8,278 nt of DNA from a virus (lineage: Duplodnaviria > Heunggongvirae > Uroviricota > Caudoviricetes): the IMG/VR virus record IMGVR_UViG_2778261641_000012, positions 1 to 8,278 of that record. One strand, 5' to 3'. Below the pieces are notes generated by a model. That model was given only the letters and a program-made list of their open reading frames with translations, was not told the origin of the DNA and did not search any database. Below are positions 1-8,278 of this stretch, in pieces. Position 1 is the stretch's first letter, and each line of letters starts with the position of its first letter. A program made the translations under genes and the position numbers.

Positions 1-258
1 ATGCAAACCGTTATTTTTGGTCGTCCGGGTTGCCCTTACTGTGTGCGTGCAAAAGATCTGGCTGAGAAATTGAGCAATGAACGCGATGATTTTCAGTATC
101 AGTATGTAGATATTCGTGCGGAAGGGATCACTAAAGAAGATCTACAACAAAAGGCAGGTAAACCCGTAGAAACCGTGCCGCAGATTTTTGTCGATCAGCA
201 ACATATCGGCGGCTATACCGATTTTGCTGCATGGGTGAAAGAAAATCTGGACGCCTGA
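1..258 (+). CDS. grxA: Glutaredoxin 1 (85 aa), complete
   Basis: The 85-aa ORF contains the CPYC active-site motif (GRPGCPYCVRAKDL) and matches E. coli Grx1 almost residue for residue as I recall it. It is followed by a hairpin plus T-run, and has the expected neighbour ybjM convergent downstream. Confidence 0.95.
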   Translation: MQTVIFGRPGCPYCVRAKDLAEKLSNERDDFQYQYVDIRAEGITKEDLQQKAGKPVETVPQIFVDQQHIGGYTDFAAWVKENLDA

Positions 259-267
259 TCGTCTGAC

Positions 268-300
268 AAGCCCTCGCGTTGAGGGCTTTACTGATTTTTT
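268..300 (+). terminator. Probable rho-independent terminator of grxA
   Basis: An 8-bp stem AAGCCCTC (268-275) pairs with GAGGGCTT (281-288) around a 5-nt loop, followed by TTTTTT at 295-300. The stem overlaps the last codons of convergent ybjM; the T-run is only on the plus strand, so it is unidirectional for grxA. Confidence 0.5.
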
Positions 301-665
301 CTGTGCTGTGGTTTAAACAAACTACTGATAAATAAGAAACACAGTGCCCCCAGCGCACACCAGAACACCGCGCTTAGTAACCATGCCAGCTCTTGCCAGA
401 ATGAGCGCGTCGGTGAAAAAAACAGCCGCATAATGAGCATCGAACAGGGTGCCGCCAGCATTGCGCCAAACAGAGGTTTCAGGACTTCTCTACGCTGTGA
501 AAAGAAGCTGGCGACTGCTCCAGGAAGAATGAAAAATAGCAAGCCGATTTCAGGATGCCCGGCAGCCCGAAAAGCGCCTTTCATGTGCGTCGCCAGAAAA
601 AGGCACACCACAATGAAGAGGACAAAACAGCAGATTGCCCCCGCCCAACGTTGTTTATGTTTCAC
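288..665 (-). CDS. ybjM: Small inner-membrane protein YbjM (125 aa)
   Basis: The 125-aa ORF is very hydrophobic, with about four predicted transmembrane segments. Its length and its position between grxA and ybjL match the E. coli ybjM locus. Function is unknown. Confidence 0.85.
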   Translation of the reverse strand: MKHKQRWAGAICCFVLFIVVCLFLATHMKGAFRAAGHPEIGLLFFILPGAVASFFSQRREVLKPLFGAMLAAPCSMLIMRLFFSPTRSFWQELAWLLSAVFWCALGALCFLFISSLFKPQHRKNQ

Positions 666-934
666 TCGTTCCTCCTGACACTGCGTCTATCGAACACATT
701 TTTCGCCAGTGTGGCGTTCAGTAAGATAAAGCCGCTTCGCATTCCATGCTAATATAGGCCAACGCAATTCATATAGCCGTTGATACCTAATGTGATTACA
801 CTAGTAAAATATATTGTTACTTTACTATCGTTTAGGTGCGCTGAATGAATCTGCGCCCTGAATTCTGGTAAAAAACATTATCGTAAATTACCATTTCTTT
901 CAACAGCTTACTAGTAAACAAGAAGTTAGCCTCC

Positions 935-2620
935 GTGAATATAAACGTCGCCGAATTGTTAAATGGGAATTACATTCTGTTATTATTTGTGGTCCTCGCG
1001 CTTGGGCTATGTCTCGGAAAGTTACGACTTGGTTCGATCCAACTGGGTAATTCCATTGGCGTTTTAGTCGTATCGCTGTTATTAGGCCAACAACATTTCA
1101 GCATTAACACCGATGCGCTTAATCTTGGCTTTATGCTGTTTATTTTCTGCGTCGGGGTCGAAGCCGGACCGAACTTTTTTTCCATTTTTTTTCGCGATGG
1201 GAAAAATTACCTAATGTTAGCACTGGTGATGGTTGGCAGTGCGCTGGTGATCGCCTTAGGGTTAGGTAAGCTGTTTGGCTGGGATATTGGCCTGACGGCC
1301 GGTATGTTAGCAGGCTCTATGACGTCGACACCGGTTCTGGTCGGTGCTGGCGATACACTGCGTCATTCCGGCATGGAAAGCAGGCAGCTCTCACTGGCAC
1401 TGGATAATCTGAGCCTCGGGTATGCCTTAACCTATTTAATCGGTCTGGTGAGTTTGATTGTTGGTGCGCGTTACTTGCCGAAATTGCAGCATCAGGACTT
1501 ACAGACCAGCGCCCAGCAAATCGCCCGCGAACGTGGCCTGGACACTGATGCCAACCGTAAGGTTTATTTACCGGTGATCCGCGCCTATCGCGTCGGCCCG
1601 GAGCTGGTGGCCTGGACCGACGGCAAAAATCTGCGTGAACTGGGTATTTATCGACAAACCGGCTGCTACATTGAACGTATTCGACGTAACGGGATTCTGG
1701 CAAATCCAGACGGTGATGCCGTGCTACAAATGGGCGATGAAATAGCGTTGGTAGGCTATCCCGACGCCCATGCCCGACTCGATCCCAGCTTCCGTAACGG
1801 TAAAGAAGTTTTCGATCGTGACCTTCTCGACATGCGTATCGTCACTGAAGAAGTGGTCGTTAAAAACCATAACGCTGTAGGTAAACGTCTCGCACAACTG
1901 AAGTTGACCGATCACGGTTGCTTCCTTAACCGCGTCATTCGTAGCCAGATTGAGATGCCGATAGATGACAACGTCGTGCTTAACAAAGGTGACGTTTTAC
2001 AAGTCAGCGGTGATGCCCGTCGCGTAAAAACCATCGCCGATCGCATCGGCTTTATCTCGATTCACAGCCAGGTCACTGACCTGCTGGCATTTTGCGCCTT
2101 CTTTGTTATTGGGCTGATGATCGGGATGATCACCTTCCAGTTCAGCACATTCAGTTTCGGCATGGGGAACGCTGCCGGGTTGTTATTCGCCGGAATTATG
2201 CTGGGCTTTATGCGTGCTAACCACCCGACCTTCGGTTACATTCCGCAAGGTGCATTAAGCATGGTGAAAGAGTTCGGCTTGATGGTGTTTATGGCAGGCG
2301 TTGGTCTGAGCGCCGGTAGCGGTATTAATAACGGCCTGGGCGCGATTGGCGGTCAGATGTTGATTGCCGGATTAATTGTCAGTCTTGTGCCCGTGGTTAT
2401 CTGTTTCTTGTTCGGTGCTTATGTATTGCGAATGAACCGCGCACTGTTGTTCGGCGCAATGATGGGCGCACGCACCTGCGCGCCGGCAATGGAGATCATC
2501 AGTGATACAGCTCGCAGTAACATCCCTGCGCTGGGCTACGCGGGCACCTACGCAATCGCCAACGTCCTGCTGACGCTGGCAGGGACAATCATCGTCATGG
2601 TATGGCCAGGATTAGGATAA
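935..2620 (+). CDS. ybjL: Putative transport protein YbjL (AAE-family transporter with two central TrkA-C/RCK_C-like domains), 561 aa
   Basis: The 561-aa ORF starts at GTG 935 with N-terminus [29 protein letters not shown], which matches E. coli YbjL as I recall it. It has duplicated membrane domains flanking a soluble central region, typical of the YbjL/YidE/AspT family. Confidence 0.93.
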
Positions 2621-2732
2621 AACTGAAGTTGCCCTGAAAATGAAATTTTTTTGCACAACCGCAGAACTTTTCCGCAGGGCATCAGTCTTAATTAGTGCCA
2701 CTGCTTTTCTTTGATGTCCCCATTTTGTGGAG

Positions 2733-2778
2733 CCCATCAACCCCGCCATTTCGGTTCAAGGTTGATGGGTTTTTTGTT
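2733..2778 (+). terminator. Candidate terminator downstream of ybjL (or structured element at the prophage/host junction)
   Basis: A perfect 10-bp inverted repeat CCCATCAACC (2733-2742) / GGTTGATGGG (2760-2769) around a 17-nt loop is followed by TTTTTTGTT (2770-2778). The U-tract is on the plus strand only. Confidence 0.45.
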
Positions 2779-2855
2779 GCCTGAAATTTATGCTTTTTAA
2801 AATCATGATGTTAGACGCACTGTTTTTTAATGATGGCGACAAATTGGCGGCAGAG

Positions 2856-3074
2856 TCAAAGAGAGAGCGCCCCCTGTCCTGATTTCATTGGATGCGGCTG
2901 AACCGGATTTGACTCTTTTGGCGTTGCAATCGAACGAACAAAAGTTTCATGGGTTACAAAAGTATGGCTGCAGTTAATATTCTGGCACTGGTTGTAACGC
3001 TCTTTGGTCAATGAAGATACCTGAAAACTGCTGCGAGTATGGGCGGCACTTCCACACAGTGGGCAAATCATCAT
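2856..3074 (-). CDS. ogr: Ogr/Delta-family zinc-finger late-gene transcription activator (about 72 aa from the ATG at 3074; the ORF track extends to 3107)
   Basis: It has the Cys4 pattern CPLC...N17...CQNINC and aligns with P2 Ogr as I recall it (MFHCPLCQHAAHARTS...KERYHQCQNVNCSATF). The ATG doublet at 3074/3071 is preceded by GGGGAG 9-11 nt upstream. The track start at 3107 has no SD and would lie upstream of the predicted promoter -10. Confidence 0.85.
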   Translation of the reverse strand: MMICPLCGSAAHTRSSFQVSSLTKERYNQCQNINCSHTFVTHETFVRSIATPKESNPVQPHPMKSGQGALSL

Positions 3075-3111
3075 TTTTCGAGTTCTCCCCATTTTTGCTA
3101 AATTCACAATA

Positions 3112-3139
3112 ATGATACCGCATTATTCCATTTTGCAAA
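3112..3139 (-). promoter_or_regulatory. Candidate sigma70 promoter for ogr
   Basis: On the minus strand, -35 TTTGCA (3139-3134), a 16-nt spacer, and -10 TATCAT (3117-3112). This puts the transcription start about 30 nt upstream of the 3074 ATG. Sequence-only prediction. Confidence 0.35.
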
Positions 3140-3164
3140 CTTAAAAGTTCTCCATTGCGAAGAA

Positions 3165-4265
3165 TCATTCCATTTCGAAATCATCAATCCTCACTTCAAG
3201 CTCCAGACTGGTCGTAAAACCATTATCCGGGCTGACGGTATGTGTCAGAGTCGTAATGGTCCATTCCGCATCATCTATCGGCTGTTTAAAACCACTGACC
3301 TTCACAGGCATTTCCGTGTAGAGATCTGCCCGCCCTTCTGCCAGTTGTAGAGAAAATGACGCAACGCCGCGTTGCAGGCGTTCCCACTGCATTTTCGCCG
3401 CTCGTTCGGCGTTGCTCCGGTTGGCATAAGTGCGATTAAGTACCAGCACGTTTTCATCCGTACCCACCAGGTAATCGCCCTGCTTCGCTTCTGGCTCTTT
3501 CTTCTGCTTCTTAGTTCTGCGCTTACGCTTCACCGTGGTGCTTTCTTTCTTCGCAGGTTCGCGGGTATGCAACCAGCTGGCAATTACGCCCGTGTAGGCT
3601 CCGCGATCTGCCAGGGTAAAGCGGTGACTGTCGCCGTCCTTACGTGTGATAGTGATCACCGGCAGTGGTTTACCGCTAGCACTTTTACCCTGTCCCTGCC
3701 GGATGAATAACAGATTGCCATTTTTCACCGACGCAATAGCACCGTACTGGCGCGCCAGCCGCATCAGAAAACTGCCGTCACTCTCATTAGTCTGGTCTAT
3801 ATGCTCCACAGGCTTATCCGACAGGTCTTTACCCAGTGCCATCTTCAGCTTGTGACGTACGGCTATTTCCTTCACTACTTCCCCGACGGTGGTCTTGTGC
3901 CACGACTTTTCACGGCGGGTATTCAGCGTTTCACGAAAATCAGCACTTCGCGCCCGAATAGTCAGGCGGTCCGGTGCGCCAGTGTGTTCAATCTCGTCCA
4001 CCGTGAATGCCCCTTTCGGGAAAAGCGGCTGCCCCTTCCAGCCCAGCGCCAGCGTAATGACCGCACCACGGCGCGGCAGCACGATTTTTCCGTCGGCGTC
4101 GTCCAGCTCCAGATCAAGCTGGTCCGCTTCAAAGCCCCGATTGTCCGTCAGCGTCAGACTCATCAGACGGTTATCCAGCACAGTGGTGATATCCCTGCCC
4201 TCAATACTGATACTGAATGCCGGAGTTTTGTTGCCTTTGTTAAGCAGTTCAGAGCTGAAATTCAT
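3165..4265 (-). CDS. D: Phage late control gene D family tail protein (P2 gpD-like), 366 aa
   Basis: Its length and position (immediately upstream of ogr and downstream of U) match P2 D. The protein has the lysine-rich internal stretch typical of gpD proteins. Its start overlaps the U stop in an ATGA junction at 4262-4265. Confidence 0.88.
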   Translation of the reverse strand: MNFSSELLNKGNKTPAFSISIEGRDITTVLDNRLMSLTLTDNRGFEADQLDLELDDADGKIVLPRRGAVITLALGWKGQPLFPKGAFTVDEIEHTGAPDRLTIRARSADFRETLNTRREKSWHKTTVGEVVKEIAVRHKLKMALGKDLSDKPVEHIDQTNESDGSFLMRLARQYGAIASVKNGNLLFIRQGQGKSASGKPLPVITITRKDGDSHRFTLADRGAYTGVIASWLHTREPAKKESTTVKRKRRTKKQKKEPEAKQGDYLVGTDENVLVLNRTYANRSNAERAAKMQWERLQRGVASFSLQLAEGRADLYTEMPVKVSGFKQPIDDAEWTITTLTHTVSPDNGFTTSLELEVRIDDFEME

Positions 4266-4747
4266 GACAGCAGCCCTCCCACCGTTTTACTGATATCGCT
4301 TAAGGCAGATGTTGCCATGTCCTGCAGATTATTCAGCTGCGCACTGAGATCACCAAACATATCGGACAGGGATTCATCCACCCGTTTGAGCGACAGGGTG
4401 AACTCAATCCGGCGCGGCATACCGTCGCGGAAAAACTCCGTTTTGGTCTGATTCAGTCCCTCAATCACATACATGCCGTAAATCGTGCCGCTGCCTTCAA
4501 TCAGGGGCCATGCTTTCCCCTGCTCTGCCATCTGCTCCAGTGCCAGCAATGACAGCCTGCCGCCTGTTATCTCCGGCATAAGAACACCAGAAAGCGTCAG
4601 CATGTCGTTGTCCGGTCCCAGAAACTGCGTGGATGGACGACGATTTACCCGACTGTTAGCCGCATGTCGCCAGCTGCGCTGATACTGCAGTTCCTGATAC
4701 GGCACGGTGCGCAGCATAAACACGTACAATCCCAGCACCATCATCAT
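4262..4747 (-). CDS. U: Phage tail protein U (P2 gpU-like), 161 aa
   Basis: Size (P2 gpU is about 160 aa as I recall) and position between T and D fit. It is translationally coupled at both ends by ATGA overlaps (4744-4747 and 4262-4265). Confidence 0.85.
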   Translation of the reverse strand: MMMVLGLYVFMLRTVPYQELQYQRSWRHAANSRVNRRPSTQFLGPDNDMLTLSGVLMPEITGGRLSLLALEQMAEQGKAWPLIEGSGTIYGMYVIEGLNQTKTEFFRDGMPRRIEFTLSLKRVDESLSDMFGDLSAQLNNLQDMATSALSDISKTVGGLLS

Positions 4748-5868
4748 GCGTCGTATCCCCCCTGATCGCTGTAGTTACTCCTGGCTTTTGCCTTCAGCCT
4801 GCGTTCACGTTCATCAAGCTGGCGGGCCACCTCCCGCGCAATATCCTGCGCACTTTGTCCTGGCTGCGTCTGAATGATGATCTGCGTCGGTGCCTCAATC
4901 CGTTGAACGGGCGGCACAGTGGCTGCACGACTCACCATCGCTTCGCCGCCTTTCGCGGGAAGTGCCAAAGGATGTAACGGTGGAAGCTCTGTAGGCGCGG
5001 CAGCAACGCCCATCATTTCGGCAACAACCGCAGCCAGTGCAGCGGTATTTCTCCGGCTGGTCACGTTTGCCGGGCCGTTGACAATTTCCGGCCCGTTTTC
5101 ACCGACGATGCCAAACTGCCCGCGCGGGATATAGCCGCCGCTGTCATACATCCCCGCAAAGCCATATCCCCATGACGGAAAACCACCCGATGGCATCATC
5201 ACTTTACCGTCTGCATTCACCGTCGCAGGTTGCTGACGCGTCACGCTTTCCGGCAGTTTCGCCTTTGCGGCCTCTTTACTGACAATGCCGAGCTTCTCCA
5301 GCAACCAGGAAACGCCGGATTTCAGTGAGTCCAGCGGATGCATGACCATATTCAGCCCTTCCGCCAGTGCCTCCCCGAATCGCCGCCCCATTGCCGCTGC
5401 ACTCTGCAGTTCGGCAGAGGTCGACTTAACGGGCGTCAGCAGATCAGTAAACCAGCCCCACAGCGCCTGCACTTTGTCGCCAATCCACTGAAACACAGGC
5501 TTAAGTGGTTCGAATGCAGCACTGATGGGACCTGCCGCCGCTTTGAATCCTTCCACCACGCCACCGAGAAATGCGGTGATGGGTTGCCAGTATTTCCAGA
5601 CAACCAGCGCCACGCCCGCCAGTGCAGTAACCACAAGACCTATCGGACTGAGCAGAGCACCTACCAGCGTTGAATCTTCAGTCAGATCGGTAAGCAGCCA
5701 GATTTCTGGTGCGGTTAATAAATGAGGTTGAGCTGGGTTCAGCTTGTTCCGCAGAATCTGCACATTCATGCCTGCACGTTCTGCCAGTTGCACCAGGTTG
5801 TGGCGCAGTGCGAATGCACGACAGGCTTCATCAAAATGTGGATGTTTGGAAACTTGGTAATCAAACAT
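4744..5868 (-). CDS. Chimeric ORF (374 aa from ATG 5868): N-terminal ~70 aa like the HTH domain of a CII-type early regulator (186 CII / Phage_CP76 type), fused in frame to a C-terminal tail tape-measure (gpT-like) fragment. Probable deletion-fusion product.
   Basis: The N-terminus [49 protein letters not shown]...LTEDSTLV matches the CII-like regulator N-terminus as I recall it. The rest is Ala/Gly-rich with a hydrophobic segment, typical of tape-measure proteins, and ends in an ATGA overlap with U exactly as T does in P2. At 374 aa it is far shorter than a full tape measure (about 800 aa in P2 as I recall). The ATG at 5868 has GGAG 9 nt upstream; the track start at 5877 is a TTG inside the SD spacer. 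Confidence 0.65.
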
Positions 5869-5932
5869 GGTTTTCAACTCCGAACTTATCGCAAAATCGA
5901 ACTCAGCGTCTTATTGTGAAAATAGACGTCTA

Positions 5933-6136
5933 TTAAGCAGACAAAGCATCAACAGTCAGAGCAGCCAGGTTAATCATTACCTTTTCACGTTTTTTGTCTT
6001 TACGAAGACGATGACGAGGTAGTCGGCCATCAGCCAACATGTCGTTAATCGTATCAATAGAAAGGCCAGTCAGTTCGCTATAACGTTCGATTGTGACATG
6101 TGGTGTATTCAGAGTAATTGAAATGTTAGGTGTCAT
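5933..6136 (-). CDS. Small HTH DNA-binding protein in the Apl/Cox position (67 aa); putative excisionase and lytic-operon regulator
   Basis: It is divergent from cI and is the first gene of the rightward early operon, directly upstream of the cII-like sequence, as apl is in 186. The motif [24 protein letters not shown] resembles an excisionase/AlpA-type HTH. AGGA lies 10 nt upstream of ATG 6136. The family assignment is positional and motif-based only. Confidence 0.5.
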
Positions 6137-6225
6137 AAGGCAACATTCCTTCTAGATATGGCTTGTGGCGAGCCGTTGTTTGTCGTGATTAGTAGTGAAG
6201 GCTCCAAAAGAACACTTCTGGTTCA

Positions 6226-6254
6226 ACTTTAAGATCGCTTTTGGAATCTGTCAA
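6226..6254 (-). promoter_or_regulatory. Candidate early lytic promoter (pR-like) for the apl-like / cII' operon
   Basis: On the minus strand, a consensus -35 TTGACA (6254-6249), a 17-nt spacer, and -10 TAAAGT (6231-6226). It lies between the cI start and the apl-like start and is embedded in TTTTGGA repeat motifs. Confidence 0.4.
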
Positions 6255-6281
6255 CGAATTTTGGATTTCTTTGGAGGACTT

Positions 6282-6851
6282 GTGGATTTCAATAGCGGCG
6301 GTAAGAAAGCCATAGAACGTTTAGTTGAAGCATATGGGTTCGGTACCCGTCAGGCTCTCTGTGATCATTTAGGTGTTTCTAAGAGCACCATGGCAACGCG
6401 CTATATGCGTGATATTTTTCCAGCAGATTGGGTAATCCAGTGCGCCCTTGAAACGGGCACCTCGCTTAATTGGCTAACAACAGGGCATGGTTCAAAGCAA
6501 GCATCAGCAAATACAAATACTATAGAAGTAGAAAAATATTTATTGTCTGATGGAGCATTGCAGAAAGACGGTTTTTATATTTTTGATAAGGGATTTCTAC
6601 CCTCTACGTTTAAAAAACCTTTTGTCATCACAGATAACAATTCTGAATTTATTTGTGATAAAGAATTTGATGATATACGTGATGGTAAATGGGTAATAAG
6701 TATTGATGGCGAAATAACGATCCGTGACATTACTCGTTTACCCGGTGGAAGAATCTTCGTCGAGGGTGGAAACAGAGCCTTCGAATGCAAGATAGAAGAC
6801 ATTGAAATAATTGGTAAAATTATAAGTTTAACAGTCAAGTATGTTAAATAG
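6282..6851 (+). CDS. cI: 186-type CI immunity repressor (about 190 aa from GTG 6282; the ORF track extends to 6195)
   Basis: It aligns along its whole length with coliphage 186 CI as I recall it: LVEAYGF vs ICEAYGF, CALETGTSLNWLTTGHG vs CALETGANLQWLLTGEG, FDKGFLP vs FDTSFLP, and WVISIDGEITIRDITRLPGGRIFVEGGNRAFECKIEDIEIIGKII vs WLVDIEGAISIRELTKLPGRKLHVAGGKVPFECGIDDIKTLGRVV. GTG 6282 is preceded by GGAGGA (6273-6278), though the spacing is short. The longer ORF from 6195 would overlap the pR-like promoter. Confidence 0.8.
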   Translation: MDFNSGGKKAIERLVEAYGFGTRQALCDHLGVSKSTMATRYMRDIFPADWVIQCALETGTSLNWLTTGHGSKQASANTNTIEVEKYLLSDGALQKDGFYIFDKGFLPSTFKKPFVITDNNSEFICDKEFDDIRDGKWVISIDGEITIRDITRLPGGRIFVEGGNRAFECKIEDIEIIGKIISLTVKYVK

Positions 6852-6866
6852 TACCGGGAGGAAACT

Positions 6867-7058
6867 ATGCTTGGTAAGGTATTTTTTGTGGTTTTGTCAT
6901 GTTCTTTGTTATTAAACCCACTAACTACCTATGCTAGAAATTATCCCTGCTCAGGGAAAAAGGGAGGTGTTTCTCACTGTACCTCAGATGGCAAATTCGT
7001 TTGCAATGATGGAACTATTAGTAAATCCAAAAAAATCTGTACTAAAAACTCACGATAA
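6867..7058 (+). CDS. Hypothetical small exported cysteine-rich basic peptide (63-aa precursor; predicted mature peptide about 40 aa with 4 Cys)
   Basis: A strong RBS GGGAGGA lies 4-5 nt before ATG 6867, which is 16 nt after the cI stop. The N-terminus [23 protein letters not shown] looks like a signal peptide with a possible signal peptidase I site after TYA. The mature part [40 protein letters not shown] has 4 Cys and net charge about +7. The region is AT-rich. I do not recognise a family. Confidence 0.5.
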
Positions 7059-7193
7059 CTTTTGCTTTTATATCTGCGTCTAAAATAAAAATGAGCCGCA
7101 TGTTAACCGCAAAAGTTACATGCTCACATAGCAAAAAGAATAGCCAACTTCATTATGGCTTCAGTGAGATGTATGGTCGTAGGATTTCATACA

Positions 7194-7222
7194 TTGACAC
7201 TGGTTATACATACAGTAAAAAT
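7194..7222 (+). promoter_or_regulatory. Candidate promoter upstream of int
   Basis: Consensus -35 TTGACA (7194-7199), a 16-nt spacer, and an A/T-rich -10 TAAAAA (7216-7221). GGAGGG (7233-7238) lies 8 nt before the int ATG at 7247. Sequence-only prediction. Confidence 0.35.
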
Positions 7223-7246
7223 GCTCTCTACTGGAGGGCATTTTTT

Positions 7247-8278
7247 ATGGCAGTACGAAAACTCACCACAGGGAAATGGCTTTGCGAATGTTACCCCGCC
7301 GGAAGAAGTGGGCGTCGTGTGCGTAAACAATTCGCCACCAAAGGCGAAGCTCTGGCTTTTGAGCGTCACACGATGGAAGAAACCGAATCAAAGCCCTGGC
7401 TGGGCGAATCAGTGGATCGTCGAACCCTGAAAGACGTGGTTGAGCTATGGTTCAAATTACATGGTAAATCTCTGACTGCTGGGCAGCATGTCTATGACAA
7501 ATTGCTGCTGATGGTTGACGCTCTAGGCAATCCTCTTGCAACCAATCTCACCTCTAAAATGTTTGCCCACTATCGAGATAAACGCCTGACAGGTGAGATC
7601 TACTTCAGCGAGAAATGGAAGAAAGGAGCCAGCCCGGTCACCATTAACCTGGAGCAAAGCTATCTAAGTAGTGTTTTTAGCGAACTATCCCGCCTGGGCG
7701 AATGGTCGTATCCAAACCCACTGGAGAACATGCGAAAATTCACCATCGCAGAAAAAGAGATGGCATGGCTTACCCATGAGCAGATTGTTGAATTGCTGGC
7801 TGATTGCAAACGTCAGGACCCAATTCTGGCACTGGTAGTTAAGATATGCTTAAGCACAGGCGCACGTTGGCGTGAAGCCGTAAATCTTACCCGCTCACAG
7901 GTGACCAAATACCGAATTACCTTTGTAAGAACGAAGGGGAAGAAAAACAGAAGCATCCCTATCAGTAAAGAGCTTTACGAAGAGATCATGGCGCTTGATG
8001 GGTTCAATTTCTTTACAGACTGCTATTTTCAATTTTTATCCGTGATGGAAAAAACGTCTATCGTGCTCCCTCGCGGTCAACTGACACACGTTCTGCGCCA
8101 TACGTTTGCGGCGCACTTCATGATGTCGGGTGGAAATATCCTGGCCTTACAAAAAATTCTCGGGCATCACGATATAAAAATGACTATGCGTTACGCACAT
8201 CTGGCACCGGATCACCTGGAAACTGCATTACGGTTTAATCCGCTGGCAACACTACCAACATCAATAGCAAGTTTTTGA
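7247..8278 (+). CDS. int: Tyrosine site-specific integrase, P2 Int family (343 aa from ATG 7247; the track ORF from 7091 is an unsupported N-terminal extension)
   Basis: It has the conserved blocks LSTGARWREA, HVLRHTFAAHFMMSGGNILALQKILGH and MRYAHLAP (catalytic Tyr), which align with P2 Int (GARWGEA, LRHSFATHFM, LQRILGH, MVYAHFAP) as I recall it. A good SD precedes 7247. The stop codon is at 8276-8278, so the gene is complete in the window. Confidence 0.9.
   Translation: MAVRKLTTGKWLCECYPAGRSGRRVRKQFATKGEALAFERHTMEETESKPWLGESVDRRTLKDVVELWFKLHGKSLTAGQHVYDKLLLMVDALGNPLATNLTSKMFAHYRDKRLTGEIYFSEKWKKGASPVTINLEQSYLSSVFSELSRLGEWSYPNPLENMRKFTIAEKEMAWLTHEQIVELLADCKRQDPILALVVKICLSTGARWREAVNLTRSQVTKYRITFVRTKGKKNRSIPISKELYEEIMALDGFNFFTDCYFQFLSVMEKTSIVLPRGQLTHVLRHTFAAHFMMSGGNILALQKILGHHDIKMTMRYAHLAPDHLETALRFNPLATLPTSIASF

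Follow-up and report, generated by a model that had tools for sequence, protein, structure and literature searches.

The question raised by the 8,278-nucleotide stretch that makes up positions 1 to 8,278 of IMG/VR virus record IMGVR_UViG_2778261641_000012 (hereafter the window) is how a single open reading frame (ORF) came to begin as an early phage regulator and to end as a tail tape-measure protein. The window contains the two ends of a P2/186-type (Peduoviridae) prophage lying between ybjL and rcdA on the Escherichia coli chromosome, and the feature under study is a defective P2/186-like prophage with a chimeric ORF made by deletion, an arrangement of a known kind of which sister fusions have already been deposited. 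In this ORF, codons 1-69 of a 186-type cII gene run in frame into codons 721-1025 of a T gene of P2 type. Its parts, in window coordinates, are as follows.

4744-5868, minus strand: chimeric ORF cII'-'T, 374 amino acids, defined from the ORF list, Pfam and comparison with native CII and T
5664-5868, minus strand: cII-derived part, codons 1-68 and the first base of V69, the helix-turn-helix half of a 186-type CII
5661-5663, minus strand: deletion junction, TAG (CTA on the plus strand) common to cII (ctggTAGatgg) and T (ctgtTAGgtgc)
4744-5660, minus strand: T-derived part, tape-measure codons 721-1025 and the stop codon

The frame runs from an ATG at 5868 to a stop codon at 4744-4746, and an alternative upstream TTG at 5877 would yield a fusion product of 377 amino acids. 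The regulatory origin of its beginning is evident from several comparisons: Pfam family PF06892 (Phage_CP76, regulatory protein CII) matches residues 10-83 (E 8.5e-25, model positions 1-77 of 146), solved structures of 'Regulatory protein CII' (6VLI, 6VMH and 6VPE) match residues 1-77 (E 7e-35), and the first 70 residues fall in 'CII-like regulator' families of PHROGs (phrog_35458, E 1.9e-44). The native 169-amino-acid CII of intact relatives is identical to the fusion over residues 1-69 (69/69), and the cII of WCHEC050613 is 100% identical to the cII part of the window from position 5661 onward. Residues 70-374 correspond to residues 721-1025 of the 1025-amino-acid T of phage Cartapus and of E. 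coli prophages, with a nucleotide identity of 93.8% to Cartapus. This part matches phrog_5690 (positions 576-907 of 907, E 4e-128) and phrog_28, 'tail length tape measure', and residues 74-176 gave weak matches to the tape-measure structures 8KEA_G and 9J1K_J; in the Pfam search PF06892 was the only family returned, and the 304 C-terminal residues were without any match. The T part opens with a hydrophobic segment (residues 72-90, Kyte-Doolittle mean 2.42 over 19 residues), and the stop codon of the fusion overlaps the start codon of gpU as ATGA (GCATGATGATG). An earlier note on this DNA had read the N-terminal ~70 residues as a CII-type regulator and the remainder as a tape-measure C-terminus, and had proposed separate searches of the two halves; these searches bear out both assignments, the CII matches stopping at about residue 77 and the rest matching the C-terminal 30% of T, and the ATGA overlap that it described is real.

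Neither parental identity is retained in full. The N-terminal helix-turn-helix region of PF06892 is present, and the gene lies where intact relatives have it, behind apl/cox in the rightward early operon and facing CI; the C-terminal half of the domain (model positions 78-146) is absent. Because half of the CII domain is gone, the fusion does not count functionally as a CII family member. On the tape-measure side, the C-terminal homology and the translational overlap with gpU are present, and the full length of about 1025 residues and the preceding E/E+E' chaperone, tube and sheath genes are missing; because 70% of T is gone, the fusion is no tape-measure protein either.

The join can be placed to within three nucleotides. 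Two BLAST alignments overlap there, at 5658-5667 and 5661-5667, and on the coding strand cII reads AACGCTGGTAGATGG, T reads GGTCTGTTAGGTGCT and the window reads AACGCTGGTAGGTGCT. Because TAG is common to cII, T and the window, the crossover was placed in this trinucleotide, which sits within an imperfect 8/10 match. Window positions 179-5667 are 99.85% identical to the T/U/D/ogr arm and adjoining host DNA of E. coli YZLc4-1, and positions 5661-8278 (2,618 bp) are shared at 100% identity with WCHEC050613 and at least eight further genomes, in which they form the immunity arm. On either side of the join the window is collinear with the 35-kb intact prophage of YZLc4-1, which occupies the same ybjL-rcdA site and supplies the parent alignment that the earlier note had suggested, with TAG as the microhomology. 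Relative to this prophage the window lacks 28,025 bp, or about 26.3 kb on the Cartapus map; the lost block comprises the rest of cII, fil, the replication, packaging, head, lysis, baseplate, fibre, sheath and tube genes and 70% of T. The earlier estimates of a join near 5640-5680 and of a loss exceeding 25 kb thus agree with the alignments, and its list of lost content (the rest of cII and the replication, capsid, lysis and tail genes) stands, except that the 5′ 70% of T is missing and not the 5′ half. A search of the join for an insertion sequence (IS) element, an invertase site or an att-like sequence found none. Collinear flanks, a short shared sequence at the join and the lack of an IS or site-specific recombination site are the marks of a microhomology deletion.

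The exact junction occurs in 0 of 5,426 complete E. coli genomes, where three full-coverage matches are each split in two pieces, and the breakpoint at V69 of cII was not found in any other remnant examined. The exact 374-amino-acid protein is present on three public contigs, all of them short-read (Logan) assemblies, as would be expected if a chimeric contig had falsely joined cII to T. Such an artefact is nevertheless extremely improbable, because all three contigs carry the fusion, one of them being 63 kb long with normal host flanks on both sides, the 3 bp common at the join are far under any assembler k-mer, and analogous junctions exist in the closed genomes LR-27, HH107, ETEC1706 and EC06.

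To the anatomy, parentage, junction and size of loss described above, and to an intact CI, a mechanism can be added conditionally. An internal deletion of about 28 kb would have brought codon 69 of cII next to codon 721 of T; it would have been independent of RecA, proceeding via the exact TAG inside the 8/10 match, and may have taken place in one step or in two nested steps. We consider it very probable that such an internal microhomology deletion of about 28 kb produced the locus and that the ORF is an inert scar, normally silent under CI.

Some observations weigh against this account. No known genome has both arms identical to the window, and the size of the deletion is estimated from relatives. 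The one-step and two-step routes yield an identical sequence and hence are indistinguishable; the single large deletion of the earlier note is thus upheld by flanks collinear with an intact prophage, and its singleness is unprovable. Furthermore, the breakpoint in T is, to the nucleotide, a recurrently used site, unlike what a random scar predicts, and this coincidence hints at a site-preferring process or at selection.

In the two-step route, V111 of cII (gcggTAtctgg) would first have been joined to L720 of T, giving a form of 416 amino acids, and a 132-bp deletion between GGTAG direct repeats, one at V69 of cII and one at the V111-L720 junction, would then have produced the window. The 416-amino-acid form does exist, both at ybjL (locus L020) and at ssrA (L021, L022), with the junction GCGGTAGGTGCT; two or more deletions are clear in the remnants L016, L018, ET896 and BE2-5, and a 5-bp repeat is a better substrate for slippage than a 3-bp one. 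However, among the 416-amino-acid forms found, none has flanks identical to those of the window (L020 is 98.6% identical over cII and 96.8% over T), and the product itself gives no decision. We therefore regard the two-step route as rather unlikely.

The recurrence of the T breakpoint emerged from a protein search with the fusion, in which the matches listed, the best 120 of 329 and open frames only, were almost exclusively chimeras. In these the T C-terminus is preceded by CII, sheath, invertase, L, M, V, W, J, H, A, Dam, lysozyme, T itself or antisense ORFs. Among 48 distinct junctions mapped to an intact prophage, 21 have a TA from both parents in the crossover interval, and TA is often the only sequence shared. 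From composition about 3-8% would be expected (binomial tail 1e-20 to 4e-11, a statistic in which reused sites are non-independent observations). Besides the window, the loci whose junctions cluster on such shared TAs are L002-L004, L007, L013-L018 and L020-L022. TA joins were confirmed at the DNA level in 11 junctions and include the following.

cII V111 x T L670: HH107, a different prophage at ssrA
cII V111 x T V716: LR-27
cII V111 x T L720: L020, L021
cII V111 x U: ETEC1706
cII V111 x D: EC06, ET896
P' x T V716: BE2-5
A x T V716: L017
sheath codon 116 x T V716: L018
sheath codon 165 x T L720: L016
antisense P x T L720: L015

The T-side breakpoint of the window, the TA of codon L720, has been reused by at least six other independent deletions. 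The hot spots reused in this way are cII V111 (GGTATCTGG), T V716 (CGTATCTGG), T L720 (TGTTAGGTG) and sheath codon 116 (GTTATCTG), and also T L670 and I727; at least seven different partners are known for cII V111, at least six for T V716 and at least seven for T L720. Reuse of these last three sites spans two chromosomal sites and different immunity regions, and even the particular junction of cII V111 with T L720 is found in prophages at both ybjL and ssrA that differ in their immunity regions. T contains 75 TAs, evenly spread, 20 of them in residues 560-730, and only six or seven are used, with V716 and L720 dominant. Joins of other kinds also occur. V111 of cII is joined without a shared TA to sequence lying upstream of the invertase in L016 (one T shared) and to an inverted O' fragment in BE2-5 (AT). 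Among further junctions of this type, D x D shares GAA, the apl-cII spacer x T shares TG and O x invertase shares A. In BE2-5 (L004, 4570-5070), about 490 bp comprising the divergent P/O late-promoter region and the 5′ ends of O and P lie inverted between cII V111 and T V716, with joints that share AT and TAT; this O'-P' fragment is the product of a deletion plus an inversion.

The regional excess of breakpoints near the 3′ end of T may reflect simple erosion of the remnants. Segments of T were found at 1,023 (residues 300-368), 1,009 (530-598), 1,048 (729-790) and 1,102 (900-970) places in the 5,426 complete genomes; a probe for residues 674-714 was unusable, this repeat region being too divergent for megablast (440 places versus about 1,000). 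The protein itself carries, at residues about 617-722, quasi-repeats of ~21 residues (xPLxxLRxGLxxxG...) before the last hydrophobic helix, and part of this stretch (L009, 5502-5624, residues 674-714) diverges between strains far more than its flanks do. A corresponding protein search with native CII for breakpoints in cII returned full-length CII only among the 120 matches listed, and a literature search found no relevant report of TA-biased deletions or of junctions in P2 remnants.

A process that prefers certain sites and joins TA dinucleotides, in place of random microhomology slippage, might account for this pattern; candidates may be an enzyme that cuts with a 2-nucleotide stagger, or template switching that favours fraying at TpA steps in GC-rich DNA. 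The frequency of TA junctions relative to expectation, the DNA-level joins, the reuse of a few sites in independent prophages and the position of the inverted BE2-5 fragment between two such sites all argue for it. On the other hand, ordinary microhomologies without TA make up about half of the junctions, the reuse of T sites makes the observations non-independent, the list of chimeras covers open frames from the best matches only, and no enzyme among those considered fits, so that we hold this explanation tentatively and as the less probable one. If it were true, the junction of cII V69 with T L720 would be one product of the TA-joining process. The broader proposition that P2/186-like prophages of E. 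coli decay largely in this manner, with hot spots reused and inversions produced as well, is similarly a possibility that we would not favour; it would imply either an unrecognised enzymatic or replication-linked mechanism of deletion, or selection that keeps T from its last hydrophobic helix onward.

Five agents or structures were tried as causes of the TA preference and rejected. The cix-like sites of the phage DNA invertase (TTCTCGCATACC TT GGTTTGGGAGAA) have a central TT, unlike the hot sites, and the repeats flanking att are unrelated to the hot sites, which leaves the invertase at pseudo-sites and the integrase at secondary att sites without support. For subunit exchange by gyrase or Topo IV, the published determinants are -4G, -2A, -1T, a 4-nucleotide stagger, +5A, +6T and +8C; these match the left half of the TATCTGG sites only and fail elsewhere. 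Folding z-scores at cII V111, T V716-I727 and sheath codon 116 were -0.7 to +0.9, giving no indication of hairpins or cruciforms, and Rpn/YhgA nucleases are reported to be without sequence specificity.

Whether the fusion has a function depends on how its open frame and its expression are read, and the elements that govern expression are as follows.

5878-5881, minus strand: GGAG ribosome-binding site, 9 nucleotides before the ATG, at the native cII translation start
5933-6136, minus strand: apl/cox-like excisionase-repressor gene, 67 amino acids (phrog_575, 'Cox-like excisionase and repressor', E 1e-29), in the same place as in intact relatives
6226-6254, minus strand: pR-like early promoter, TTGACA-17-TAAAGT, found by a consensus scan (10/12) and a consensus match only
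6282-6851, plus strand: intact CI immunity repressor, 189 amino acids (PF07022, PF16452; gene call on contig L005), 100% identical in nucleotides to WCHEC050613

The fusion keeps the native cII ATG and ribosome-binding site behind the apl-like gene and the pR-like promoter, in agreement with the order of elements given in the earlier note. CI represses pR in 186. Because the intact CI should repress the pR-like promoter, the fusion ORF should be silent. The open frame does not point to selection, because at each breakpoint the TA fills codon positions 2-3 (GTA of cII V69 and TTA of T L720). The same phase is found at cII V111, T L670, V716 and I727 and in the ATA codon used in U, and therefore joins among all these sites, including the cII-U fusion of ETEC1706, are always in frame; joins to another codon phase, such as cII x D in EC06 and ET896, are out of frame. 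The fusion ORF is most likely a silent scar, and one that we infer to be non-functional. Its product would join the helix-turn-helix half of CII, lacking the C-terminal part of the whole protein, to a helix of transmembrane type and to the last third of T, and if expressed would most likely be inert or mildly toxic. In 186, the C-terminal part of CII is the part responsible for oligomerisation and activation.

Alternatively, the chimera could be a selected, functional gene, for example a T fragment anchored in the membrane that stops related phages from injecting their DNA, or a CII with a dominant-negative effect. Many independent fusions retain T from just before the hydrophobic helix onward, no in-frame chimera among the best 120 of 329 matches breaks within T residues 1-560, and U, D and ogr are intact downstream, all of which would suit such a gene. 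The in-frame joins are, however, automatic, out-of-frame or antisense partners occur at the same sites (P'-T in BE2-5, antisense P x T, cII x D), and the exact protein is as rare as described above; its promoter should be repressed, and the counts of T segments in complete genomes climb steadily to the 3′ end, as simple erosion predicts. Selection for function is thus highly improbable, and an inert deletion scar remains the preferred interpretation of the fusion.

The surroundings of the fusion are those of a defective prophage, with both arms at a known site between contiguous host flanks and with the replication, head and lysis modules missing. In the window, the host genes grxA, ybjM and ybjL are followed by the prophage remnant, which retains int, CI, apl/cox, U, D and ogr. 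The entire 8,278 bp are 100% identical to part of the 63-kb assembled contig (L005), in which the order is ybjL, ogr-D-U-'T::cII'-apl-CI-ydcA-int, a small ORF and rcdA. The remaining features are listed below.

2856-3074, minus strand: ogr late-gene activator, 72 amino acids (PF04606; gene call on L005), beside the attR side and ybjL
3165-4265, minus strand: gpD late-control/tail hub gene (PF05954)
4262-4747, minus strand: gpU tail gene (PF06995, E 1.4e-44), with the ATGA overlap with the fusion stop
6867-7058, plus strand: small ORF of the YdcA family, 63 amino acids, between CI and int (PF27300 on the L005 gene call; phrog_6000, E 1.9e-34)
7247-8278, plus strand: tyrosine integrase, 343 amino acids (Pfam Int_N and Phage_integrase; gene call on L005), the window ending at its stop codon

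The YdcA-family ORF has a hydrophobic, signal-like N-terminus and several cysteines, its position is kept in many relatives, and it could be an accessory gene of the moron type expressed in the lysogen. The integrase frame is open for 52 codons (7091-7246) upstream of the ATG at 7247 called on L005, and an ATG at 7091 is probably unused. The left arm, including the host genes, is nearest to YZLc4-1 (99.85%), whose immunity region is only about 85-94% identical to that of the window, whereas the right arm is nearest to WCHEC050613 (100%), which is 97.7% identical in the left arm. This difference in nearest relatives makes the remnant, or its parent, a recombinant mosaic. A Shigella origin of the window was considered and rejected in view of the 99.85% identity of the host arm to an E. 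coli chromosome.

At least ten structurally different P2-like remnants occupy the ybjL-rcdA site in different E. coli strains (loci L002, L003, L004, L008, L010, L012-L014, L016, L018 and L020), and therefore decay by internal deletion is routine there. WCHEC050613 carries an IS1-associated deletion at this site, and the remnant of TUM10008 stops at about residue 325 of T. In FDAARGOS_1248 (L011), the int of one P2-like copy directly adjoins the ogr of another, an arrangement suggestive of a tandem array. Related remnants also hold accessory genes beside CI/int or the portal gene, namely a KAP NTPase, a SNIPE/T5orf172 protein and a reverse transcriptase (L016, 1480-3946; L020, 1358-3034; L018, 1-1779). 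Their positions resemble known P2 defence-gene hot spots, and the genes survive in the remnants.

Considered alone, the fusion is an ordinary scar of a defective prophage, with consequences chiefly for annotation, and the comparison of the recurrent TA sites matters more. If the reuse of these sites holds, P2-like remnants would constitute a natural collection of deletion junctions for the choice of endpoints in RecA-independent deletion, and in-frame chimeric ORFs in prophage remnants should not be counted as evidence of selection. Annotation is affected because the ORF would be named 'phage regulatory CII family protein' although 80% of the protein is tape measure and it cannot act as CII.

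The closest known counterparts are the sister cII-T fusions of 409, 416, 420 and 466 amino acids in P2-like remnants of E. coli, among them the 420-amino-acid protein of LR-27 (WP_425323141.1), annotated as 'phage regulatory CII family protein', and the 466-amino-acid form of HH107. They share with the window the parent genes, the orientation, the in-frame architecture and the surviving int, CI, apl, U, D and ogr, and several lie at the same ybjL-rcdA site. They differ in breaking cII at V111, whereas the window breaks it at V69, and in breaking T at L670, V716, L720 or I727, the 416-amino-acid form alone having the T breakpoint of the window. Compared with CII of 186 (6VLI, 6VMH, 6VPE; PF06892), the fusion shares residues 1-77 and the place after apl, downstream of a pR-like promoter, but only 69 of the 169 residues are CII and the C-terminal 100 are replaced. 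Those 100 residues are needed in 186 for formation of the tetramer and for activation of pE. Compared with the P2 gpT-type tape measure (Cartapus YP_010664000.1, 1025 amino acids), the last 305 residues are 94-99% identical and the ATGA coupling with gpU is kept, but because the N-terminal 720 residues and the upstream E/E+E' chaperone, sheath and tube genes are gone, the fusion cannot measure or build a tail. The cryptic P2-type remnant of E. coli K-12 consists of ogrK and a fragment of gpD at the attR-proximal end, and is not known to have an immunity/integrase arm. Both it and the window are thus reduced P2-like prophages, the window differing in that it keeps both arms and the fused ORF between them.

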